From NCBI GenBank assembly GCA_000934665.2, contig JYFJ02001872.1:47771-67770 (forward strand): DNA of 20,000 nt, written 5' to 3'. Below the pieces are notes generated by a model that had not been told where the DNA came from, made no database searches, and worked only from the letters and a program-made list of their open reading frames with translations. The stretch comes from Catajapyx aquilonaris (lineage: Eukaryota). The translations under genes were made by a program, and so were the position numbers. Shown piece by piece: positions 751 to 20,000 of the stretch; position 1 is the stretch's first letter; every line of letters begins with the position of its first letter.

Positions 751-3700
751 GCCTCGTGAGCAGGTGCGGAACTTGTTTGAGTGCTTTTGTGAGGTGGAGG
801 CAGCAAAGTCATCCACAGAGATGCCTCGAATTGTTAAAAAGTTCCCAGAAAGCTACAAACAACATGAAGTGCTCAAATCTGTCCCACAATTTTCTTTCCC
901 ATGCGAGTTCCCTAAGCCAAAGTGAGCTTTCATCTACTTAATACTGACATCTTCAATACTTTCAGTGTGTAACAAATTATTTCTTTTACTGTAGTGATGT
1001 GGTACAACATTTTTCATTTGTCCTCACTAACATTGACTCAAAGTGGACATTTGGCTTCTGCCGCTTGGCCCCAGGGCCAGCAACAGCTCTGGTCATCCTC
1101 AGTTTCCTACCATGGCATGAAGTTTTTTACAAGTGAGTCATCATAAGAATGCAGGGTTTCTGAAAAAATAGACTATGTTTGATGGAATGGGTGTGCATTT
1201 TTTGCAGGCTGCTGAACCAATTGGCAGAGCTTACTCAACCCAGGTCAGTGAGTCACCCAGATGTCAATCCAGTGTGGACCTTCCTGGAAGCCCTCAACCG
1301 TGTGTCTGTTCCTGAACCAGGGGGTACACTTCAGGTTCCATTTGAAAAAGAAGTTAAGGTGTGTTATTGTGTTTACTTGTAATTAAGAATTTTCACAAGC
1401 AATAAAAGTAAATTGTGCAGAACATTACAGTAACTTTTAACACTGTGTGCTCTGTGAAGGTAAATGTTGTAAGTCATGAGGTACATTATTAAATACTTTT
1501 GTTTAAAGACAACATCCAGAGCATTGATTGAGCAGTGTCCCAAAGTCAACAAGATCTCTTACGTGCTTGTTGTGGACAGAAATTCCCATTGCCACACTGT
1601 TGTGCAATCTTTTCCAAAATGGGATTCAATGTTTTATGTTAAAAGTAATTCCAGTGTAAAAATTGCTTTAAATGGTTGTGTGCTTTCTTTGCAGATCTTT
1701 ACATGTAACTGTCCAGATGAGTTTTCTTTACCAAGTATACCAGAAAGTGTGAGTATATGATCCTATGTCGTTAATTTGGTCAAAAATTTTAATGTGGACT
1801 AAATAGGGGATTTTAAACATTTTATGCATTTTGACACAACTCCCAGGACATGTCATGTCACAAAACTCATTAGCTTTTTAAGAAGGGTGGAAAGGTTAAA
1901 CGATGCTCCATGTCAGACAAACGTATTTTTCCAAGTAATCTCTGGAGAAAAACAATTTGAGCGACTATCATAGAGAAAGTTATTGATGGGCAGTCTGTAA
2001 CTTCTACTTAAATAATATTTCTTTTCAGCGCAACTTGACCGAATACGTGAATGCCATTGAGGTGTCCAACATGCTGGCAATCTTTGCATCCCTCTTGTTT
2101 GAGCGTCGAATACTCGTGGTGTCAAGCCGCTTATCTCGCTTGAGCGCTTGTGTACAGGCTGCCAATGCTCTCCTGTACCCCATGCATTGGCAACACATCT
2201 TTATCCCAGTGCTTCCTGCAGCCCTGCAGGATTATCTTCTTGCTCCAATGCCTTACTTGATTGGGGTACCATTACCAATCTGGAAGAGGGTTAGAAAGTC
2301 AGAGCTGGGTGATGTTGTCGTTGTTGATGCTGACAGGAATCGGGTAGACACCCCCTTCCAGGACGTTGAGAGTTTGCCTCCAGAAGTGGTTTGTAGTATA
2401 TGTGCAAATGTTTCATGGATATCTAGTTTTGGTTGTGACTAGCTGACAGTTAGTTAAAAATATAACAATTACTTTACTTCCCATCGTGGCTTTTCCCTAA
2501 AGAAGGGTGCCGCAATAACAGGAAAGAGCATAAACGCTTGCTTCCTCTATACCTCATACTGTCATACATAAAATCTAGAACACTCCTTAGGAGTGCCCAG
2601 AAAACAATAACAATGACAAGTATATCAGTATGATATTGGAGAGGGGGCTAGAAAGAGGAAATGTGGGATGGAGGATCAGGAAGCAGGAGTGGGAGGGAGG
2701 GTAATAATTGATGAGAAGGATTCTGATGAAGTGTGTTATAAGGATGATGTAGAGTAGCAGTCGTCACCTTTTTTGTTATTGCTGAACCCTTCCTTTAATG
2801 ATGGTGAAGCAGTGGCAAGAGCCACTTATATAATGAGGCAGCTGTGTAGGGTATGTTTCGTTCACTTTCAAAATTCTCCTACCACCCAGACAGATATCCT
2901 GATCAACCTTGAGATGCCTGCCATTAGTTGTTATTAGCCTGCTTCTGAGAAATGATCTGAATCCATTTAAAAGGGCTTTATTTCTTGAAAGGTGGCATCA
3001 TTTCGAAGACGTCTTCGCAGTCCTGACAGTCTCCTGAGGGATGGTGTGGCTCGAGCTTTTTTGAGAGCCCTGGTACAGCTTATAGGCGGGTACAGAGATG
3101 CGCTACGCTTCCATCAAGGAGCCAAGATCACCTTTGACCAAGAGCTGTTTGTATTATCCAGGCCATCGAATCTCCAACCTTTTCTACGATCCATGTTACA
3201 CCTCCAGATATTCCAGCAGGTAGGGTAGTCATTCTTAGATGCACCACTTTCAGTACTAACATTTTATTCTTACAGTTTGTAGAGGAGCGACTGGATATTC
3301 TGAACTCAGGACAGGGCTTCTCTGATGAATTTGAACTTGAGGCATACCGATACTCAGAGAAGGAAAGCTCAAAGTTAAAGCAGCAATATCGGGAATGGCT
3401 TAGTACAGTGAGGAAAGAAGGTGGAGCTTTTCTCAAAAATGTTAAAAACAAGGTAAGGGGTGATGACTTGATTGGTCTTGGCAGTTGGCATGGGTAGTGC
3501 ACGTTTTTGCTAGGATGGGTTGTTGATATGTTTGCTTTTTTTGTTCTTGTTTGTTTTCTACTTTTTTTTCCCAGGCCAATCCTGCAGTCAAGTCAGCTGT
3601 TAAGACTGTAAGTGTGGCTTTTTGTTTGGGGACCTATATTGTTTAGACTACTGGAAAGTCACTTGTTTTGGACGTATTATGAATTATGATGTGCTACTGT

Positions 3701-6700
3701 AATTTTAGTATATTTTACAATGCATGGATTCAGTGAGCAAGATTTATTTTATGAGATTTTGTTGAGAGATTTTTACCTCCTGCTGCTGACTGACATTTTC
3801 ATATTGCATTGAGAATACTCAGGCTTGTCATTTATTAAATACAAGGGCTAATTGAAAAGTAATTTACAACTTTTTAAATTCCAACGCTTCATTACAGAAA
3901 CTGATGCTGGCATGTACATATAAAAGGGCAAGGGTGGAATATTCGTCCCACTGCTAGTTACTTCTAACTTAGCATTACCATTGCAACACTGGTACACTGC
4001 TAAGTTAGCAGTAACTAGCAGTGGGACAAAAATACCACCCCAAGTCTTTCTCTAATTTAAGACATAGTCACCATCCACTTTGATGCACTTGTCTTACCGT
4101 ACATTAGTTTTTCCATGCCCCTGCAGAAAAAGCGTCAGGTTGGCTGGGCAGGCAGCCTCTTTCACTTCCTTGATGTTGCTGAGGTCTTGAGAGGCCAGTA
4201 CTTCTTTCTTGGCCCAAGATATGCGAGACCATGGTTAAGACCATCATTTCGTACTAATGAAGAGGCACCTGGCCGATCAGCACTTCAGCAACATGGAGCA
4301 AGTGAAAGAAGCCATACGCCACTGGTTTCTCATCCAGCCTGACCCTTTTTTCTGCAGGGGCATGGTAAAACTAGTGTCCCAAATGCACCAAAGTGGATGG
4401 TGACTTTTTCTAAAAGTAGAGAAAGACTTGCCATTTCATATGTATATGTCAATTTCAGTTTCTGTAATGAAACTTTGGAATTTAAAAAGTTGTCAATTAC
4501 TTTTCGATTAGCCCTTGTATTTTTGCCACTGTTCAGTTCATTCCTCAGGTGGTCTTGTTTGCTTTGTTGCTATTTCAGTAAATAAGGACGCATCGAGGTT
4601 GTTCCTAGATGCCAGCTGAGTATGTACTATTGGCATGGAAATGGTTCGCACACTTGTCTGGACCATTTCTGTGTTGATAGTTGTGATTTTGTGAACAATA
4701 TAGTACAGAGCTGGACATTTGTTTAGTGTACATGAGATGATGTTGCACAGTAGTGCCAGCTTATTATAAACTGTCAACTGGACACAATATCCTAACTAGC
4801 GCTGCCAAGAGCTAATAACTCTTGGCGCTGCATGTTGCAGTTGATGCTTTAGCATTTAATAGGAGCAGCTAATTACACAAAATTGTAATTAGTTGACTTG
4901 ATTGTATTTGTAACAATCCTGTCATACATATGAACCATGAAACTGATCATACTCTCAAAGTGGGAGTTGTTATTTTTATTATAACCCATTTGGGGTTGTC
5001 ACCAATATTGAGAAATGATGCCAAGGTGGGAGTTCATTTTTTATAATTTTCACTTGTTCAGATGAATTTTCAACTTATTACTGAATTTTGATCATGTCTT
5101 TTCCATGTTCATCGCACATGTAGGTAAAGGAGCGAGGCAAGTCAGCCTATAAGGACATCAAGTCAAGGTTCAAGGATCTGCACAGCCGAGATGAGTTTGA
5201 TGCAGTCCCTTCCCATGACCCTATGCCCTTCGCCATGTCTAGTTCCAAACCCCACTCAGCTCCCTCCTCTCCCACTGTCAAGCAGAGGCCCCTCACAATA
5301 GCTACAACCTCTTATAGGAGGGAAGGGCCACCTTTCAGGCCACCCAGACCTACTCACAGGTTAGAGAAAGTTCTTCTCACAATTCTTTTACCATTTCGTG
5401 AGTAAATATTGTGATTTACAACCAGTTAAGTGATCCACTATCAGGCGGATTTAGCACTTGTGGTAGTCTTAGATGTAGTACTTTGCAACTCATCCTTCAG
5501 CCAGTATTATATACAAGTGCTTGTTCTAGTTTAATTTTTCTGTGTTGCCATGTCGCATAGGTCAGATATGTTGTCCTGGAAAAACTGCTGCAAAATCAGT
5601 ATCATTTTTTTCAGGTATTCAATTTTGTGCTTCCATTGAAACAACTTGCTAATACTGTTGTGTTATTATTTGTCTTGTGGCAGTCCTGGACATTACAATC
5701 CATTAGATGCTACCTCTCCTGGAACCCCTGGCAGTCCCGAGGGAGCATCCAGTGCGAGTGGTTCTGGATCTGAACTGCACCCTCCTTGCCTGAACCTCGA
5801 CCTCATGAATGATATGCAGGACTTTCTCTTCAGGACAGTCCCCTCGTCTTCCTCCTCTGCTTCCTCACTGGGACCTCCTGTTGATCGATCCGTAAGTATT
5901 CGTTGCCTTGCTCATCAACCTCTCACATTTCCCCTTTTAATTATGTGTTTCTCTATCTTCATACAACTACACTGTTTGTCTTTGTTTATCAACCTATCAA
6001 AAGCACTTGTGTGTATTATTTATATGCACTGGGAACTAAGACTGGAAAGCTGCTTGATTGTCTAAAATGTAGAAATTCTTTCTGTACAGAGTTATAGGAT
6101 GTAATAATTGTAATGTTAATAAAATTTTGTCTAATACATCTTCTATGGTCAAGTCGTCAGCTTTCTACTTTTATGGATGTTTGTATGTAATTTTTATTGA
6201 GCATTGGTCTCATGTTGTAGGCATGAGGTCTCTACACATATTATTTTGTGATGAGCTTTTTAGCATAAATAGGAAGCTGTTTTAGGGCACCTTCTGATGC
6301 AGTCCCTGAAAGACATTCAAACATGATTTATTATTATGCCAATTGGCTATTATCATCATGTGATAAGGTAGTATGGTTGTTGAGGTAAAAACCAACTGCT
6401 CTCCAGTCTGAGGTTTCACAGACCACATACGTCTTGCACTTTTTTCTTCTGTCCATTTCTTACTGCCTACATTGTTGTGCGGATGGTTGAGGGTGCTGGG
6501 GGGAAACCCCACCTCTTGCAGCTGAAACCCACCCGAAGCTTCGACAGCTCCACCAGTAAGGATGCTTTTGGCCAGCGTCCCTTCCTTGCTGTGTCTACAG
6601 ACACTCCTCTCTCATCCGAAGCCCTACTACTGGCCCCTGCCCCTGAACCTACTGCCATTTCTTCTCCGTCTTCCCTCTCGCCAATCCCACCACCTTCTCC

Positions 6701-8288
6701 TCCTCCAAGACCCACCAGAAGACGGCAGGTGGGCAGCACTCATGATGGAATTTCTTCCAAGGTAAGGGCTTTTCTGTCTGGGCGCCTTAATTGTGATTTT
6801 GCCCTTTATTTTGAGCTTTTAGTGTTCCACCGTGTAATACTTTCTCTCCTATTTTTTGTTCAGGAAAGGACTGGTACGTCACACGTAAATATTGTGGTGT
6901 CCCTGTCGAGTTGACTCGCGTGTGGCTTGCATGACTTGTGTGTAGACGTGCTTGAACTTACCTCATGTACATTTTAAATTCCGATAGATTAGAGGAGTAT
7001 TTCATAGCCAGCTTATGAAAAGAGAATGTAAGTTACATAACAGTTAGGCTGGGTTGCAGCGTGGGGATTTTTCTAGAAACCTGGTGTTACCATTGCAATT
7101 AATTGTTGCTTAACAAATCATAACAATAGTAATCATGGGGTTTCGAGTGAAACTCTCGATGGTGCAGCCCAGCCTTAGAGTTAGTGGAGTGTTGAAAATT
7201 GTGATTCAATAAAGCAGTTGATAATGACTTCACCTATTTATATGTAGGTGAGCTCTTATTATGTGTAATACTGAACAAAAGTCACTAAAAACTGCAGATC
7301 TAATGTAAGAATTAAAGCTTAAAATTTTTTACAGAAGTATCAAGTCAAATGTTGTAAAGTTGTGTGCAAGGTAATAAGTGGTACAAGCTTTGAGCCACTG
7401 ATGTATTCTGCATGTTTTCAAGACTCCAGCTCACTGGAAAAGGACTAAGAAGCTTATTGCAACTAAAATTGGTTTTGAGCAGGACAACTTGTGTAGATCA
7501 GTTTGCATATTGCAAGTAAGAATAAATTAAGGAGTTCTGCTGTACCTGACCCAGAGGCATTTACTTGGCTACTGTGCAAAGCGACAAGACCCTGAAATCA
7601 AACAAAACAAGAAAAATAGTAGCTCAGAACAAGGCTTTATGTATTTTTAAAATTGGTATACTGCACAGTACCAGTAAAATTCATGGAATGTAAAGGACGG
7701 TTATTGACAGTGCCAACCTGCACGTGTTTCATGAGTTGTGGTACATGTACCCCAGCCTACAGGTAGCTCCTTCCATGCTAGGCCAGTACTATATCTGGTT
7801 CTAGTACTGGGGCCTTCATTGGATTGAAACTGCCCAGTGTTAATTTACCTGTTAAATGTGTAGTGTAGTAATGCTTATGTGTGCAAACATGCCTGCAGGA
7901 GCACACAGTGACCACAGGCGACCTGATTCGCCTGGATTCAAGCTCAGCAGAGGAGGAATTCGACCCACTCCATCCAAGCAGGCGGCGCCCTTCGGAACCA
8001 TCAAGCAGCTTGAGGGTCAACCCAGCATACGACCTGCACCTGGTTCCACCCAGGGCCCACTCCACTCAGCCTTACTCCAAGGGCGATGCAGACCTGCTGA
8101 GGGAGTACGGGCTGGACTTCAGCCAACTCCACCTATCCGGACCAAGCGGAAGTCACGTGGAGGCAACAACCAATGGGGCAGGAGTCAAGGTGCGTCAGCC
8201 AGCACAACTGGACCCATTTGCACAGTTGGTCGACTTGACCGAAGCAAGGAAGGGTTTGCACAAAACCAACTGGACAACATTTGATTGA
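751..8288 (+). CDS. DENND1: DENN domain-containing protein 1 (connecdenn, Rab35 GEF), 5'-partial. Exons 751-921, 995-1132, 1208-1358, 1695-1748, 2029-2388, 2992-3219, 3276-3452, 3575-3607, 5124-5359, 5684-5891, 6522-6761 (alternative donor 6728), 7899-8288
   Basis: GT-AG introns with consistent phases join uDENN (LFECFCEV..FP..F.FPCEF; QHFSFVLTNIDSKWTFGFCR; SFLPWHEVFYKLLN), cDENN (LPSIPESRNLTEY; LFERRILV; LYPMHWQHIFIPVLP; APMPYLIG) and dDENN (FLRALVQLIGGYRDAL; QIFQQFVEERL..GFSDEFE). A Ser/Pro-rich tail follows with endocytic motifs DLIRLD, FDPL, DLL, DPF and C-terminal WTTFD* (WxxF-acidic). Start exon not seen in the window. Confidence 0.93.
3842..4517. mobile_element. Mariner-derived fold-back (palindromic) non-autonomous element with TA target-site duplication
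   Basis: Ends are TA|caagggctaattgaaaagt ... acttttcgattagcccttg|TA. The arms are inverted copies almost to the centre (about 4230). The right arm translates LMKRHLADQHFSNMEQVKEAIRHWFLIQPDPFFCRGMVKLVSQ/CTKVDGDFF*K*, resembling a mariner transposase C-terminus. Confidence 0.88.
3932..4040. mobile_element. Palindromic MITE (PIF/Harbinger-like) nested in the left arm of the mariner fold-back; CAA target-site duplication
   Basis: gggtggaatattcgtcccactgctagttacttctaacttagca pairs with tgctaagttagcagtaactagcagtgggacaaaaataccaccc. It is flanked by caa (3929-3931, 4041-4043), and the opposite host arm has a single CAA (empty site). Confidence 0.88.
7047..7174. mobile_element. Tourist/PIF-Harbinger-like MITE with TTA target-site duplication
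   Basis: TTA|ggctgggttgcagc ... ggtgcagcccagcc|TTA, with degenerate inverted similarity extending about 50 bp inward. Confidence 0.82.
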
Positions 8289-9991: not shown

Positions 9992-12900
9992 TTAGAAGGC
10001 CTTCAGTGCTTCCATTGCTCTAGATATCCTGGCCAATTCTCCATCCAATTGTGTTGCCTTCTCTGAATTTGCTTTGCGAACTTCCTCAGGCACCTTCGTC
10101 TCATAGTCTGCCACCTGCATTGCTTGTAAAAGCCGTCCCAGTTGTGAATCTAGCTGTTCCTTCTTGCGCTCCAGCTTCTGCTGTTCCTTCGCTGCATCAA
10201 CCAATCCCTGGAAATTTTCCATTGTTTACTAGAACTAACTTAAGAGGACACAATTTACTAACCTGCAGTAATAGATGAACTTCACACTTATCTGATACAG
10301 TGACAACAGCACACCCTCCTGGAGGGTTGGCAGTGACTTCAACCTTTCCGCATGATGCAAGTGTTGCTATTGTCCCAGCATATTCATTGACAATTGATGT
10401 TGTCAACTTGTCAGAGCAGCACAGAAACACTGTGAAGGTGGGATAAAACAAAGTGCAACAGTTCTAATGCAATGCTACTTCCCACAGGATTGCATATAAT
10501 ATTCATAATCCTCCTAATTGGCATTGATACAACTGGAGTTAATTGTTCCATACATTAGGTTACTAGCTTCATTGTGTACTTACGATCAGTTTTCACTTTG
10601 TTTGGCAGCACATAATCAGATTTGGTGGACCGAACAGTGTGAACAATCTTCTGAACAAACTCGACCTCTTGTTCAATGTTCGCATCACTCCAGTGATACT
10701 GTTGGAAAAGTAAAGACTTAAAATTGACCCCTCTAACAAGGCATATGTGCCTACCTGGGTCTCCTCTGGATACTCTGCAACACCTATGCTGTTGGCTGCT
10801 TTATCACGTGGTAGCCGTTGATACAGCTCCTCACTCAGGAAGGGCATAAATGGGGATATGAGCCTAAGACCCACGTCAAGGCAGATCCAAAGCACGTTGG
10901 ACTCGAGAGTTGTATCGGCCCCTGATTGGAAGTGAGGCTTAAGGTACTCCAGGTACACATCACACAGCTCATACAACCAGAAGTTGTAACAGGCAGTGGT
11001 TGCTGCATTCAGATCATAGGCTGAAAACCCTTCATTGCAGGTGCGCACAGCCTCACTCAGCCTGCTCAATATCCACCGGTCCATTTTGGTCAGCTTGGAA
11101 TTTAGGCCAGAATTGGACAGGTTTGCTTCCATATTCCGCTTCCAGCGAGCTAGGTGTGGCAGATGATCCACTGGTAAGTTTCCAATGGACAAGAAGGTGT
11201 CCGAGTCCAGTTTGGATGCTGTCCATCCCTGCAGGTAGCTCTGTTCTGCCAACTTATCATTCAGGTTCTTGAGCTCACTTTCAGTTACATGGCCGCTGGT
11301 TTCCTGTGATGCTGTTATGTGTTTAGAGTTGGGGCAGAAAGAAGGAGGCAGTACTGAGAGAGCAAAGCGAGTTGCATTCCAGAGCTTGTTGCAGAAGAAA
11401 CGGTAACCTTGTACACGCAAGACGTCCAAGTTGATGTCACGTCCTGTTAGAGGTAAGATGGAAAGTGACCTTCAGAAATGCATTTTGTAAATAAAACTTT
11501 ACATAAGGATCCACATCCTAGCATAAAATATGACACCTACCTTGCGAGGTAATAATAATAATAATTAATAATTGATACCCCATTATCAGCCCATTGGGCT
11601 TTATTAGGGGGGGATTTCTCCCAATTTTTTGTCGGGAACTCTTTCCATTTTTACTATACTTTTTCATCGGAATTGAGGCAAGGATAGGTAAGGAAGGAAG
11701 CGGCTGTGGCCTATAGCTACCTTGCGAGGTGTATGCACAGAGGGCAAATCGAAGTGCATCACTGCCACATTCTGGGATACCATTAGGGTAGTCCTGCTTC
11801 TGACCTTCCATTGCCCTTTTCACTTCAGTAGGATCCAGGTTTCCACCTTGCAGCTGGGCATGTAATCCCTGCCAGACATGACAATGTTAGCATGAGAATC
11901 TAATTTTGAACACCTGTGGTCACACTCACTTCTAAGGAAATTCCTGTGATGACATCCAGAGGATCAATGATGTTTCCCAGTGATTTACTCATCTTTCGCC
12001 CATGGGCATCTCGTACCATAGCATGGAGATATACCTCTCTGGAATTGCAGCCAAGTTACCAAGGAAGTCATGTTGAAATCAATACGAGTGGGTAAATGCT
12101 CACTTGAAAGGCAGTTGTCCCATAAGTTTCTGTCCAAAGAAGACCATTCTTGCAACCCAAAAGAAAATTATATCATGCCCTGTCTCAAGAAGAGTCCCAG
12201 GGTAGAAAGCTTTCAGGTCTTCCGTCTAAATGGCAAATATTATTCAGATTTAATAGGCTGTCATGATAGTAATTCATAAAACAAATGGTAGATACCTGCT
12301 CAGGCCATCCCAAAGTTGAAAAGGGGAAGAGACCTGAGGAAAACCAAGTATCCAGTACATCACCATCCTGCTTGAGACTGATCTTGTCTGGAGACACTCC
12401 AAATTTAGCTGCAGCCTCTGTCTTGGCTTCCTCTTCTGTGTGCCCACTAACCCAGTACTTGTTGTCAAGTTCCTGTGAGAGATCCAGCATTTAATATTAC
12501 ATCATGCTTGCCAGCAGCAGTACTTACATTTCCTGCAGGAACTGAAGGGTCATTCACAGTGACAAAGTAAGCAGGGATGCGATGGCCCCACCACAGCTGA
12601 CGTGAGATACACCAGTCCCTACGAATAAAAGTAGAGAAAGATTGGAGGAAGAATGCACCTCTATACTGTATTGACATAAGATCTCCATTGACATTTTTTG
12701 CTGAATATTTTGACACTCCTTACCTATACCGTGCATAAGAATTATTCTGCTTCTGCGCTTGTAGAACTCATGGGTAAAAGCAATGAAAAACCGAACGCAC
12801 CTGATGTTCTCCATCCAGTGAAACCAGGTCTTTTTGTGAGTGTCAGGAATAATTCGAAGTTCTCCTGATTGGACTGCTTGGATGGCATTGGCAGCCAAAT

Positions 12901-15586
12901 CATCACAGCGAACATACCTGCAAGTATATGGTAACTGAATGTGATACTGAAACTGAGAGGAATGTTACTCATATTGAGGTCAAATCTCTCCTATCTCATA
13001 AAGTCACTGTCACAACCTTTACTTAATATTGAGTTGTAATTTACTCAAGCTCTGAACTTGTCATACTGGGTGGAAGTGTGAAAATCTGAAATTTCTCAAC
13101 AGCTGTTTGCTATTTGCTTGGTCAATGTCAATACCACTGGGATGAATGGAGCCTACGTAAAGACTTATTAAATAATGAGCCACATATTGTGGACTCAATT
13201 TCATACAGCCACAGGTGGAAAAGAAAGTGACCAGTGACAACTGCATAAAATATCTGAGAGCTTTGTATATCACAGATTCCGCAGTGTGACTGGGCCTCAT
13301 CTCTGCCGTCAGTTGTAAGAAGACCGTAACTCAAAAACTAGTAAGGGCGAAAGTCGCATGCATGCCGTGCACTTATCCACCCTGGCTCAGAGGGGATTAG
13401 TGCAGGGCGTGCATGCGACTTTCGCCCGTAGTGGTTTTCGAGTTACGGTCTTCTTACATCTGACGGCAGATCTGAGGCACAAGAATTTGATCAAAATGGA
13501 ATACTCACCACTGAGGCTTGATAAGGGGCTCAACAATATCTTTGGAGCGGCTGCATACGGGAACCACCATTGGATTGTCCTTGGTATCTCGATATAAATT
13601 TAAGTCCTTAAGGGCCTTCAAGACAGCCTTGCGAGCATCAAACCTCTTCATACCCTGTTTAAACAAAATACTGAATGAAGATTCTATGCAATCAGGGAAT
13701 TAAAATAAATTCAGTTTAAAGCTACTAGCTAATTTTTTGCAGCCTTATGAATAGTATCACTGAAATTAAATAATATTAATCACTCCTCAATAACCTAATG
13801 CCATAAAGCAATAAAAGTGTACTATCGGAAATGATACTCACTTTGAACTGCTCACATTCACCAATGATGTTACCCTCATCATCTAGGATGGTGATGAAGG
13901 GCAAATTGTTCCTCATTCCCACCTCATAGTCATTATGGTCATGAGCAGGAGTTATCTTGACTGCACCAGTGCCAAATTCTTTGTCAACAAACTCATCACA
14001 AATTATGGGCAGACGTCTGGAGCAGAATGGATGCTTCACAAATTTTCCATGCAGGTGCTTGTAACGGGGATCATCTGGATGTACAGCTACAGCAGTATCG
14101 CCGAGCATGGTTTCTATTCGAGTAGTGGCCACTACAACTTCACCTTCTTCTCCATCTACCTGGTATGCAAAGGACACCAGGACCCCAAATTCAACCTTTG
14201 TTGCATAGCCTGGCACAGACAGTAGAGTACGTCCAGGGAGCTCCTGCTTGTCCACCTCAATGTCAGAGATGGCAGACTTGAGGGTGCAAGACCAGTTGAC
14301 CAATCTGGCACTCCTGTAAATGTCACCTGAGTGATGCAAGCGCACAAATGCCTCCCTAACAGCACGGGATGGTGCAGGATCCATGGTAAAGCAGACACGG
14401 TCCCAGTCCAGAGAGGAACCCAAAATGCGCAGTTGGTGATAGATGTGATCTCCCTTACTAGAAAAGAAAAATTTCTTTGTAGCCCATTGGTGCAAAAACT
14501 GTGGGGCTTTGGAATGACCCATGGGAATAATACCAACAAAACTGGACAGGCATTGAGCTGCGAGACTTAAATTTCCATCTTGGTATGACTGCTCCTCAAA
14601 TGTGAGAACCTGAGAAATCTAAACCTTTCATTGTGTGGTGTTTGTCCTTATCTACAATTCGAATTTTAGCATGACTGCAGCAAAATCTTTGGTATTTATT
14701 GCGTGAGGCAAGATGATGCTCATGTTGCAGTGATATTTCTCCAAGCTTGGCATACTTTTAACTTACTCTTTTTTCCAATCCCAGACTTTCTGCACAAATT
14801 TCTCTCTTCCTAGGTCGTGTCGTGTGAGTTTTTCCTCTTTCCACAAACGTTTCTCCACCACTACCTGGGTAGCAATTCCAGCATGATCACAACCAGGAAC
14901 CCATAGCGTGGTCCTTCCTTTCATTCGGTGCCATCTCGTCAGAGCATCCTCAATGGAATTAGTGAGCGCATGGCCCAGATGGAGACTACCAGTCACATTG
15001 GGAGGAGGGATAACCATCACAAACTTGCCCTTTGGGTTCTCCTCACCAATTTTCTTGCCCTGAAGATCATGGAAAAAAAACACATTGGGCTGATTCGGAG
15101 TTGATTTAATTGTGATCATGCATTGTATAACTTGGTACTGCTAATTTAAGGAATAGATTATCGTACATGAACTTGTGTGAAAGCCTGCATACCCCATACT
15201 CTGGCTTGAAGAATCCTTCCTTCTCCCACCAGGCGTACCAGGCAGCCTCCACAAACTTGGGGCTGTAAGCATCAGGCATGGCCCCCGAGACGTCCTTCTT
15301 CTCTCCTGGGCGAGTGTTGCCCTGGTACACAGCAGCCTCCTCCTTCTTCTTGGGCTCCCTCTTCGGCTTACTCTGAAAACCACATGCTCATCATCAGTAT
15401 GCCGGATAACGGCAAGGAGTAACACCCACCCACCTCCACAGATTTATTATCCTTTACAGGCTGGGCCACCTTCTGCTCCTGCTTCTGCTTGAATTTTTCC
15501 ATCTTGGCCATCTTCTTGGCCTCCTTCTCCAACTGCTTGGCCGTCTTGGGAGGCTGCTGCCCCTCAGCTTCGCCAACACCGTTCAT
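9992..15586 (-). CDS. ValRS: Valyl-tRNA synthetase (cytosolic type). Exons 15586-15434, 15372-15193, 15059-14767, 14457-13842, 13654-13509, 12917-12801, 12618-12528, 12472-12296, 12225-12104, 12038-11930, 11868-11721, 11443-10755, 10698-10584, 10429-10263, 10207-9992
   Basis: Class I aaRS motifs: [14 protein letters not shown] (HIGH), [94 protein letters not shown]. Lys-rich N-terminus [12 protein letters not shown] and a C-terminal coiled coil. All junctions are GT-AG and phase-consistent. The true start may lie upstream (ATG at 15798). Confidence 0.96.
11551..11716 (-). mobile_element. 5'-truncated SINE/retroposon with a (TAT)n tail and a 14-bp TSD, inserted at a ValRS exon-intron junction
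   Basis: Exact direct repeat ctaccttgcgaggt at 11537-11550 and 11717-11730. The minus strand begins ctataggccacagccgcttccttcc (resembling a core motif I recall from insect tRNA-SINEs), contains AATAAA and ends in (tat)n. Confidence 0.85.
13291..13481. repeat. 191-bp near-perfect palindrome (fold-back MITE-like element or hairpin) in a ValRS intron
   Basis: Arms 13291-13384 and 13388-13481 are ungapped reverse complements (about 81/94 matches by manual count) around a 3-nt loop. Confidence 0.92.
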
Positions 15587-16398: not shown

Positions 16399-19300
16399 TC
16401 AGAGGGGTATGAGTCTAGCTTGCTGGCTCCCTGATGGCAACGGGGAATCATTAACGTCAAATAAATCATTAGAAGAGTCATTGTTCAACTTATTGGGCAC
16501 ATTTCTGTCACTGGTCACGTCAGTCCTGTGTTTTGGTGGAAGCCCAGGTGCTGGAGGGGGTGTATCATCATATGCTGGGTTTGCAAATGGGATCACAGGC
16601 TCTGATTCAATGTCATTGCTGAACCGAACCCAATGTGGCTTGATCTGGCTGGCTTTGGTCAAGAATCGCTTCCCATAAGCAAAACAGGCTGCACCAATGA
16701 GGATGAGTATGAGAAGCACAATCACAACTACTGCTCCTGCTGAAATTGATGATCCTGATTCCTCTTCTGATTTGGTTGGGTCGAGCTGACCACTTGGTAC
16801 ATCAGTGCTGGTGACAGGCCACTCTGGATTTTCAGTTCTAGGTCCCGTCCCTTCAGTTGCATTCTGAAAAAAATTAGAAATGAAATAAAGCCAACAGTAC
16901 CAATATTGTATCTATCGATTACGCCAGTGATTTCTCGTGTTATAATTTTAAATGACAATGCAAAATTTATGGCAAGTTAAATTCTAATCTTTAACCATTA
17001 CTAATGCATTAAACACTCCAATTGGCTCTTTGAGAAGTCTACATTAGAATATATGCAGCTGATTTGAGTGCCAAGAAATTGAACTTACATTGAAAGTGGT
17101 TGAAGCACATTTACTGGGTCTTCCTGCCATAGGTGCTGTACCATCTGGACACATGCACACTCCACCCTCAGGTTTCAGCAAGCAGAGACGCTCACAGTTC
17201 TTCTTCCGGCACCCATTCATGCCCCAAGGCTGCCTTGACCTCTGCATTACAGTGACTGGTCCTGCAGCCCTCAAGTTGACTTCCAGTACTGTGCATTCCT
17301 CACCTTCCTGGGTCTCTCTGCAGCTTGCAAGAGACCCAGCATCACTATTCAACCAGATCGCTTTTTCTTCAAACAGGACCAGATTTGATGGCTGTGATAC
17401 GTGTGTGGAAAATAAGGTCCTGCGAAGGTGGCCATCCAGTCCAACTGACTCCACCATGTTGGCTCCTGAATCAGCCCAAGCTACGCGACGTAAAGGATGG
17501 TCCACTGACACTGAGGTAGGAGACGTCACCTTATGCGAGGCCAATATGCGGGTGTTCTTTCCGTCCATATCTGCAGTCCAAATGGCACCACCTTCCAGGT
17601 GATGTATTGACACCTCACTCCAGACTATGCGTCCATCCTCAGGAACCAGAGCCAATGATGTCACAGATCTTCCAACTCTCTTAGTTAGTGTGGCACAGTC
17701 ACCAACCTGTCCCACAGTAGCGCACACTGCAATGGAATCTCCAGACGAGTTCTTTGACACATAGTACAGGTTTGAAGTGATCCAATCGAGTGCTATGGCA
17801 GCTGGTTGCTTCAAATCCCCCAGCAGTAGATAGCTCTGACTATTGCCCCTGCTTCTGAGTGCTGCATGACGGACTTCACCAGTTTCTGGGACACTCCATA
17901 ACACATCGCCTGTTTCAGCCCGAAAATCCAATCCACCAACGTTGGATGTTTGGGGCAACAGCATTGACCATGATTGCCCTGATGAAATGTGGAGGCTCCA
18001 TATTTGGCTGCCATTTGTGTATACAACCTTGGCTTCGGGACCTAATGTAGGAAAATAGCATAAGTTAAACACTCACCAACTTATGGACTTAATCAGCATT
18101 AAGACAAATCCAGATAATTGCAAGGTAAATTTCCACTATTTAAGAACGACTGTACCTAGTGCTATGCAGGTATGTTCATCTGGTGATAGCTGATATTCAG
18201 GAGCACACCAGCACTTGAATCCACCCCAGGTGTTGTTACAGTACTGAGAGCAAGGGGAAGGATGTAAGCGACACTCATCCACATCAGCACAGAACTTGTT
18301 GTGCCTAAGGCGTAAACCAGGCTTGCAAGAACACACTGGATCTACAGGAGTAGGTCTACATCCACCTTCACATCCTCCATTGGGAGGCGTGAAACAAGCT
18401 TCAGAGCAACGGCCTCCTTCATCGGATCCATCGATGCAGTCCATGTGGTCGTCACAAACAGCCCCCAGTGACACACACCCACCAGATCTACAGCTCCATT
18501 CGCCTTCTCGGCATGGGGTCACCCTGGTGTTATTTCTAGCTATGGGCTTGTTGATCAAAATGCAGCGGGGATCAGATTCATCTGAGTTATCACCACAATC
18601 GTCTTGTCCATCGCAGAACCAGTCCATAGGGATACAACGGCGTCTGTTGCGACATTGAAACGAGCCAGTCGCGCAAATGCACTGGGTCTCATCTTGCCCA
18701 CCGCTGCATTCTGATGTGCCATTGCATTTAGCAGCATCGGGCACGCATTCAAATGAAAACGGTGAGCAGCGGAAATATCCAATCTGACACGTAGGAAATA
18801 TTGTCGCAGGATATGAGCTGGTCTGTGCGGTCACCTGGTCGCAGCCAATCTCATCTGATCCATCACTGCAGTCATCTTCACCGTCACAGCGCCACCGTAA
18901 CGTGATACAGTGGTTATCACCATTGCAACGGAAACGATTTGGTGCACACTCAACTGGGGCCACTCGTGTGCTGCAGTTCCTTTCATCAGACCCATCAAGA
19001 CAGTCTTCCTCTTCATCGCACTTCCATCTCGAGGGTATGCATGCACCATCGTCACACATGAATTTCCTGGGTGGGAGGCAAGATTCTGGGGAAATGCATC
19101 CAGCTTCGTCTTCTGATCCAGGACAGTCTGGTTTCCCGTCACACTGGTCCCTGGCTGGGATGCAAGTCCCGTCAGTGCAGGGGAAATGTGTTGATGCACA
19201 TTCAGGTGGAGGTCCACAGGTCAAGCCATCTGATGTCCTCTCCAGCCCATCAGGACATGAGCAGGTGCGTCCACCAGGATGCATGAGGCACAAGTGGGAA

Positions 19301-20000
19301 CACTGGCCATTATTACGGCTGCAGGGATGCTCACTTGGAATGACAGCCTCGGGTCGCATATTTCTCCATGCCGATGATACACGGATCCAGTATGCCTCTC
19401 TACCAGGATTAGCCACCTGCACTGTCGGACCGTCCCGATCAGCACTGGGCAGTGGCAGACTGCGTACTAGTCCACCGCTGCGCCTCTCTGTCCAATAAGC
19501 TGTGCTCGCCATTATCGCGATAGACACTGGTTGTGACATCCTTTGGCGAACTGGACGCCTTTTGGATCCATCCACATCGACTTTCTCAAGCATGCCTGTG
19601 GTTGTATCAACCCAGTAGAGGGCCTGAGCCACGTGATCAAAGGCCATGCTGACAGGTTCCCTTATAGCAGCACGTACTATTGGCTTTCTGGCACCTCCGT
19701 CCATTTGCATCCTTTCTATCTTAGCTCCTCTTCCAGCAATCCCAAAGTACAAAAGGCCCAAGTTGGGTGCCAGGGCAAGAGACACTGGCCTTCCAACAGT
19801 GTGTTCTAATAATACTGCCCTGCTTCTCTTGCCTTTAACTGGTTCCAGCTGAATGACCTCAATGGTGAGACGCTCCGAGTCAGCGAAATAGAGCATTCGC
19901 CCAGTCGTGTCCACATCTAAGGCTTCCACAAATCCAACTTGCCCAGGAGGAATGATTACTTGTCTTGATCCATCCCTCAGCGATACTGAGACAATAGAGT
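16399..20000 (-). CDS. VgR: Vitellogenin receptor (yolkless-like LDLR family), 5'-partial. Exons >20000-18156, 18041-17089, 16863-16399
   Basis: Order of domains: YWTD propeller (LYFAD, LYWVD, AYWTE), EGF, six LDLa repeats (e.g. CDGEDDCSDGSDE), EGF and Ca-binding EGF (DVDEC..CNNTWGGFKC), a second degenerate propeller, EGF, Ser/Thr/Pro-rich stalk, TM helix (AVVVIVLLILILIGAACFAY), and a cytoplasmic tail with FANPAY (NPxY) and a terminal RLIPL. The frame is open to the window edge. Confidence 0.85.

Follow-up and report, generated by a model that had tools for sequence, protein, structure and literature searches.

Can an essential gene absorb a retroposon that lands on one of its own splice junctions, and, if the insertion leaves two copies of the 5' splice site in front of a single acceptor, which of the two is used? 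This question is raised by the gene for cytosolic valyl-tRNA synthetase (ValRS) in the window (the whole stretch of DNA that was analysed, 20,000 nt long), where a SINE-derived insert at the end of exon 11 is flanked by a target-site duplication (TSD) that contains the donor, and where the sequence between the two donors is open in the reading frame of the enzyme. A preliminary description of this DNA had proposed that the insertion created an optional exon extension.

The ValRS gene and the age of its intron

ValRS homologues tile positions 15568-9998 of the window in tblastn searches, the top-scoring ones being insect proteins, and the coding sequence resolves into 15 exons and 14 GT-AG introns (55-591 nt in length, median 70). 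It is open with either donor of the intron after exon 11: the upstream donor yields 1112 aa, the downstream one 1172 aa. The relevant parts of the gene are as follows.

9992..15586, minus strand: gene for cytosolic valyl-tRNA synthetase, about 1112 aa in 15 exons; the limits of intron 1 are not unique (several equivalent solutions)
11721..11868, minus strand: ValRS exon 11, 148 nt; its final base is the first base of the Gly codon in YTSQG
10755..11443, minus strand: ValRS exon 12, 689 nt; begins G-RDINLD
11444..11540, minus strand: original phase-1 intron after ValRS exon 11, 97 nt; with the insertion 277 nt (11720-11444)

A second cytosolic ValRS that could act as a back-up was not found in the genome; by motif and score, the other PF00133 loci resemble a mitochondrial ValRS, two IleRS and one LeuRS (a small match, C595, was left out).

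Comparison of homologous loci indicates that the intron is ancient and that the SINE entered an existing intron at +4. Among 80 metagenome loci at the ValRS site, 47 are contiguous, 28 are interrupted and 5 lack the motif. A GT-AG intron of 49-584 nt, checked at both ends, lies at the same phase-1 position in 11 of the 28 interrupted loci (two near-duplicates); 16 of the remaining ones have no downstream motif that we could find (14 of them with GT at the position), and one is ambiguous. In the mitochondrial-type ValRS of this genome, too, that codon is interrupted by an intron, which is 98 nt long. As the intron recurs at its phase-1 position in these 11 of the 80 loci and in the mitochondrial-type gene, we rejected an intron created by the SINE, and the earlier claim that an ancestral donor was duplicated by the TSD is supported. 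Among the 11 confirmed donors of this intron in other eukaryotes, three have G at +5 and two have C, so a new donor with C at +5 is within the natural range; intron 8 of the window's ValRS has a +5 C donor as well.

Anatomy of the insertion

The insert consists of the following parts, all read on the minus strand.

11717..11730, minus strand: upstream TSD copy, the last 10 exon bases plus GTAG; carries the donor in use, AAG/GTAGCT (+5 C)
11716..11716, minus strand: single C at the insert's 5' junction, fitting neither the target nor the SINE majority; now the donor's +5 base
11574..11715, minus strand: SINE 3' half, positions 147-288 of 288, in gene sense, 142 nt; 2 substitutions relative to the majority, at 11634 and 11593
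11600..11605, minus strand: AATAAA, native to the SINE family; without evidence of use
11551..11573, minus strand: (ATT)n tail, 23 nt, one unit irregular
11537..11550, minus strand: downstream TSD copy; donor with ancestral intron context, AAG/GTAGGT (+5 G), the gene's best U1 match

The two TSD copies are identical at 14/14 positions with a spacing of 180 nt (166 nt separate them), and the chance of such a 14-nt duplication at a given site pair is about 4e-9. The insertion point is +4 of the phase-1 intron. Both donors, with exon ends at 11721 (AAG/GTAGCT) and 11541 (AAG/GTAGGT), thus lie inside TSD copies, the upstream one being the one used, and they share one acceptor, CAG/GA at 11444/11443. 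Use of the donor at 11541/11540 would take the SINE into the exon in frame, with an open reading frame of 1172 aa.

Several elements of the preliminary description were confirmed here: the 14-bp TSD over the exon-intron boundary (10 exon plus 4 intron bases), the new donor AG/GTAGCT with the ancestral AG/GTAGGT 180 nt downstream, and the stop-free 60-codon read-through with the peptide as described. The difference between the donors had wrongly been placed at +6, where both have T; the -10 to +4 context is identical and they differ at +5 (C vs G). The wording that the TSD "rebuilt" a donor can be made more exact: the native donor stayed on the exon and lost its +5 G, and the stronger copy ended up 180 nt downstream of it.

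The SINE family and the age of this copy

With the 194-nt insert as query, 711 candidates were found in the genome, and all 40 that were scored match at 93-100%. Most copies reach about 146 nt beyond the 5' end of the insert. The complete element measures 288 nt and combines a tRNA-like head with an (ATT)n tail; direct repeats of 9-20 nt flank 27 of 29 other copies. A full-length copy (L003) aligns with RF00005 at model positions 8-63 (27.9 bits, E 8e-4, just below the 29-bit cut-off), and the SINE head has GCT at the anticodon position; ARAGORN called no tRNA in 10 of 10 SINE loci. By these sequence features the insert is the 3' half of a tRNA-derived SINE (SINE2). The SINE origin claimed earlier, for which a genome-wide search of the insert had been suggested, is therefore borne out, though incompletely described: the window copy is a 5'-truncated half of the 288-nt SINE, without the tRNA-related head.

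Neither orientation of the full-length SINE contains an open frame; one appears only when the truncation lies at position 123 or beyond. Among 38 distinct tail-selected copies, 33 are full length and 5 are 5'-truncated, and 3 (the window copy included) start after position 123. The frame of the insert is stop-free across the body in 23 of the 28 other copies tested (one further copy, L018, gave no sequence), and the (ATT)n tail has no stop in sense. The absence of stops thus comes with the SINE family, and we regard the frame as probably coincidental; the open 60-codon frame would be a by-product of a SINE half that has one open frame. Selection for the open frame via loss of a stop was considered and rejected, the family majority being open already. 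Once the element is truncated at this point, the chance that frame and length both fit is about 1 in 9. Open in-frame inserts are uncommon (2 of the 37 other tail-selected copies are truncated enough), yet the locus was picked for that very feature.

Both substitutions of the window copy are near-private by exact pattern matching: the 11634 variant is found in 2 places and the corresponding majority pattern in 116, the 11593 variant in 1 place and its majority pattern in 89. With respect to the open frame, one is silent and the other replaces K by N. The copy lies 1.4% from the family majority, and out of 51 distinct copies 14 have zero mismatches in the SINE 3' part and 12 have two. From these comparisons the family appears young and the window copy middling, not among the youngest. 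A perfect TSD dates little because only the downstream copy is free to change; this copy would be intact with a probability of 0.82 at 1.4% divergence and still 0.5 at 5%. The earlier suggestion that the perfect TSD marks a young, possibly polymorphic insertion is weak on this account, and also in view of the two near-private substitutions and of the empty allele, which was not seen in the DNA runs described below.

Some further observations were made on the family. The central segment of the SINE may resemble the Pln domain of Talua-like insect SINEs; the Pln domain is named in PMC5786205. Segment 11680-11714 is common to many more abundant repeats with differing 3' parts: loose contig ends fall at 11679-11682 and 11712-11714 in all four runs, diverged copies occur in L009, L024, L041 and L047, and the pattern suggests a superfamily of SINEs that share one core but have exchanged their tails. 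The SINE head as query gave 2,773 candidates. At 11634 (minus strand) the family's CAG has become CCG in the window copy, silently with respect to the open frame; this CAG is a would-be acceptor 88 nt past the upstream donor, which with the old donor would delimit a frame-shifting 92-nt mini-exon. Its loss is a single event for which chance is possible, and one other copy, L033, has the same change. A partner LINE was searched for through the tail, which was unmatched in the 30 loci fetched from 150 scored RT matches (929 candidates). One locus, L092 (G000:C1070:91534-91559), was set aside when it turned out to be an extremely short insertion of this SINE: only the final 19 nt and the tail are present, and the site has a direct repeat of its own, of some 15 nt.

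Donor strength favours the old donor

Paired with the genome's own U1, the old donor reaches -12.2 kcal/mol, the best in the gene, as compared to -6.2 for the new donor and -4.6 to -11.1 at the other ValRS introns, 12 of 13 of which have G at +5. The old donor was said in the preliminary description to be closer to consensus, and in terms of strength it is. It also yields a 97-nt intron, inside the gene's range of 55-591 nt, and is nearer to the acceptor than the new donor. For competing donors in human data, PMC9225289 reports that the stronger site prevails in 86% of events and in 90% of those in intron-defined classes, that short introns shift the choice towards the downstream donor, and that smaller exons are also preferred. 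The rules of strength and proximity therefore predict exonisation of the SINE, opposite to the outcome in the only spliced data set (X5, below). The locus is like the competing 5' splice sites of that study, as far as outlined there, in having two donors of identical -10 to +4 context with one acceptor, and unlike most of them in that the weaker, distal donor is chosen, a minority outcome, if X5 carries the insertion.

The SINE tail and the TSD can fold over the old donor in a 6-bp stem. As a cause of the outcome this hairpin was rejected: after the cost of opening, the old donor retains -6.0 to -8.2 kcal/mol and the new one +0.3 to -2.7, in 4 of 4 folding-window sizes. The GC content of the insert's last 120 nt is 33-37%, similar to the intron (34%), while the flanking exons have 50%; exon 11 would grow from 148 to 328 nt if extended to the old donor.

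Transcript and DNA contigs

Of five sequencing runs that contain the stretch, four were compared with it, all as contigs: X1, X3 and X4 are DNA runs from one sample, possibly the assembly's own source, and X5 comes from a second sample (S2) and a second study, its kind unrecorded. X5 behaves like RNA, 7 GT-AG introns being missing from its contigs and present in the DNA runs, and we treated it accordingly.

In X1, X3 and X4, multi-kilobase contigs enter both ends of the insert with 0 differences and without a 180-nt skip, and no empty allele was found in these three runs; the sampled animal looks homozygous or haploid for the insertion and lives with it. That a repeat was mis-joined into the intron during assembly, which the preliminary description had named as a possible artefact, is hardly credible, because the contigs of all three DNA runs span both insert junctions without differences. 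The contigs do break inside the repeat, none spans the whole insert, and the DNA runs are perhaps the source of the assembly; against this, they were assembled independently, the TSD has a length typical of the family and the copy has substitutions of its own.

X5 contains a single 3,329-nt contig (depth 26.5) that joins 11720/11442 over a 277-nt GT-AG skip, i.e., exon end 11721 to 11443, and no 97-nt skip (old donor) is listed among its contigs. The bin depths at the site (17, 0, 72.7 and 29.2) equal what this contig and a second one, from another SINE copy, contribute. Nothing else in X5 covers 11443-11616 or the exon-SINE junction, so that no transcript with the SINE was seen among these contigs, from which minor forms are dropped; at a depth of 26.5 we estimate that inclusion below about a fifth could escape. 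X5 does contain contigs of the SINE family elsewhere, which as contigs carry no start, strand or polymerase information.

The earlier claim that the upstream donor works agrees with the X5 junction, whereas use of the optional exon extension is not supported, the only spliced data set showing the 277-nt skip alone. Exclusive use of the 11721 donor, which had been named as the result that would overturn the extension, is where X5 leans, with the reservation that contigs drop minor forms and that its genotype is indirect. An insertion-free allele makes the same mRNA as the 277-nt skip. Over 1,325 coding nt, with about 299 synonymous sites, X5 shows 0 differences from the reference. A model with flat priors and equal rates, which gives an estimate and not a genotype, places the insertion before the split of the haplotypes with a probability of 0.99 on the assumption that both substitutions postdate it and of 0.78 on the assumption that neither does. 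On this basis we infer that X5 carries the insertion.

The preliminary description had also raised premature polyadenylation. The AATAAA is present in sense (11605-11600) and a U-rich tail comes after it, so intronic polyadenylation with reduced ValRS output could be imagined. We consider it very improbable: the X5 contig joins across the site and extends over exons 12 and 13 without a change in depth, and the signal is flanked by two donors, U1 being reported to suppress nearby intronic sites (PMC5499120).

Would the enzyme tolerate 60 additional residues?

The insertion site lies 72 residues past KMSKS (58 plus 14) and maps to 562/563 of Thermus thermophilus ValRS 1GAX. The spacing of the motifs over the site is 29 aa in 115 of the 116 homologues that have both motifs; this set derives from 120 listed of 595 matches, 4 without one motif, and is mostly vertebrate. 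The exception is P0003, a public ValRS protein whose 22 extra residues at the junction read like the unspliced intron of L113; we regard them as a gene-model artefact and no natural insert. The SINE peptide is in no protein among the same 120 listed matches. The ninth residue past the site matches human Arg942 (position 942 in P0031), which is modelled as a tRNA contact and is hypomorphic when changed, according to PMC6372652. Predicted structures are poor at the site (mean pLDDT 47.7 for P0001, for which there was no PDB match; pLDDT <50 over residues 169-199 of the homologue P0100). Because of the invariant spacing, the nearby residue matching Arg942 and the only one cytosolic ValRS found, a functional long form of 1172 aa is unlikely.

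These data bear on the reading in which the old, stronger and nearer donor wins on the insertion allele. Carriers would then make mostly a 1172-aa ValRS with a 60-aa SINE loop, the allele would have survived only through its frame, and the animals of X5 would be insertion-free. Donor strength, the +5 G and proximity (PMC9225289, as outlined) all speak for it, as does the rarity of an open-frame truncation, multiplied by about 1 in 9 for frame and length, and X5 cannot reveal its genotype. Opposed to it are the identity of X5 to the reference across 1,325 coding nt, the constant length of the site in 115/116 homologues and the position of the insert 9 residues before the arginine that matches Arg942, a tRNA contact in the model (PMC6372652). 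In the weighing, a prior of four fifths for dominance of the old donor was multiplied by a viability of three twentieths and compared to one fifth for dominance of the new donor, which gives a ratio of three fifths; the X5 result enters as a factor, the probability that this sample is insertion-free (about one twentieth to one fifth), and lowers the ratio to between roughly one thirtieth and one ninth, and our value was set within that range. It is improbable, then, that the old donor serves much or most of the mRNA and that the only cytosolic ValRS of an apparently homozygous animal has 60 SINE-derived residues. Were it true that the old donor dominates in carriers, ValRS would tolerate a 60-residue foreign insert at an invariant site, before a tRNA-contacting helix; a rare 5' truncation that left the SINE in frame would have led, via the duplicated donor, to instant full exonisation in an essential enzyme, which would surprise specialists.

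A minor isoform, kept or regulated for a function as in Alu exon elongation, could also arise from the old donor while the upstream one dominates. The old donor is intact and strong, its product escapes a premature stop, and the contigs are compatible with a form below roughly a fifth of transcripts (estimated at depth 26.5). We nevertheless think this quite unlikely: the insertion occurred recently (the copy diverges by 1.4% from the family majority) and its open frame is inherited, the substitutions (one silent, one K to N) give no sign of selection, and the SINE peptide is absent among the 120 listed of 595 protein matches.

A probable reading: a tolerated insertion, spliced out

The reading that we consider probable is a tolerated insertion that is spliced out, its open frame being coincidental. 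Judging from the tail and the TSD, target-primed reverse transcription would have copied a tRNA-derived SINE into ValRS. The staggered cut spanned the exon-intron junction (10 exon plus 4 intron bases) and reverse transcription halted halfway, so that 166 nt now separate the two donor copies. The upstream copy, its +5 G now C, still works and pairs with the old acceptor, and the SINE is removed together with the second donor as one 277-nt intron, giving the normal 1112-aa ValRS, as seen in one sample of indirect genotype. Splice commitment during transcription is made on a first-come basis. Exon 11 is most likely defined to the first donor during transcription, and two features probably disfavour the second donor: the insert is A+T-rich in its 3' part, much as an intron is (33% GC vs 50% in the flanking exons), and the exon would have to be 328 nt long. 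Use of the old donor would be at most a minor leak; leakage at a low level is quite possible and would be noise.

As it most likely stands, the locus exemplifies a known principle, namely that an insertion into an essential gene can be tolerated when its TSD spans a splice site. Its value is modest and lies in a natural competition of two donors in which the weaker and more distant one appears to win against both standard rules.

Comparison with known systems

Maize Ds and dSpm insertions can be spliced out. With tRNA-derived SINEs (SINE2) mobilised by target-primed reverse transcription, as outlined in PMC5786205, the family shares a tRNA-like head, a body, a simple-repeat tail, a TSD of variable length and many near-identical copies; it differs from that outline in that the window copy lacks the head and the search of 30 RT loci yielded no partner LINE. 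Transposon-derived introns (introners) resemble it, in the summary given in PMC11282704, in that a splice site lies in the TSD and the element is spliced out, which makes a genic insertion tolerable. They differ, by the same summary, in that here no new intron position arose: a retroposon duplicated the existing donor of an ancient intron, and two donors compete. Alu exonisation by exon elongation, described in part in PMC5204098 for AluSx in TSEN54, likewise has a SINE beside an exon end that is includable via a downstream donor, but at our locus the second donor stems from the host TSD, the element is in sense and no transcript with the SINE was seen. The locus works like a TSD-assisted tolerance of insertion; it is not an introner, and probably not an exonised SINE. 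Among the titles and abstract openings surveyed, which included few subscription papers, no SINE TSD duplicating a donor was described.

Other features of the window

Rfam and ARAGORN gave no match anywhere in the 20,000-nt window. A plus-strand gene at 1987-8288, presumably encoding a protein resembling the DENN-domain proteins (from ORF translations), sits tail to tail with ValRS, and upstream of ValRS there is a minus-strand gene at 16399-19500 that we take, again from ORF translations, to belong to the LDL-receptor family. An apparent intron of the plus-strand gene contains a nested inverted repeat of 686 nt at 3837-4522 (foldback or MITE-like), and intron 5 of ValRS contains a MITE-like element at 13291-13481, with arms of 94 nt that are 86% complementary and separated by 3 nt. 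ValRS exon 12 (10755-11443) encodes about 90 additional residues between the NKLWNA helix and the anticodon-binding region, which match weakly the EF1-beta chain 5dqs_D (E 4e-4); a wasp ValRS homologue has a longer segment at the same place.
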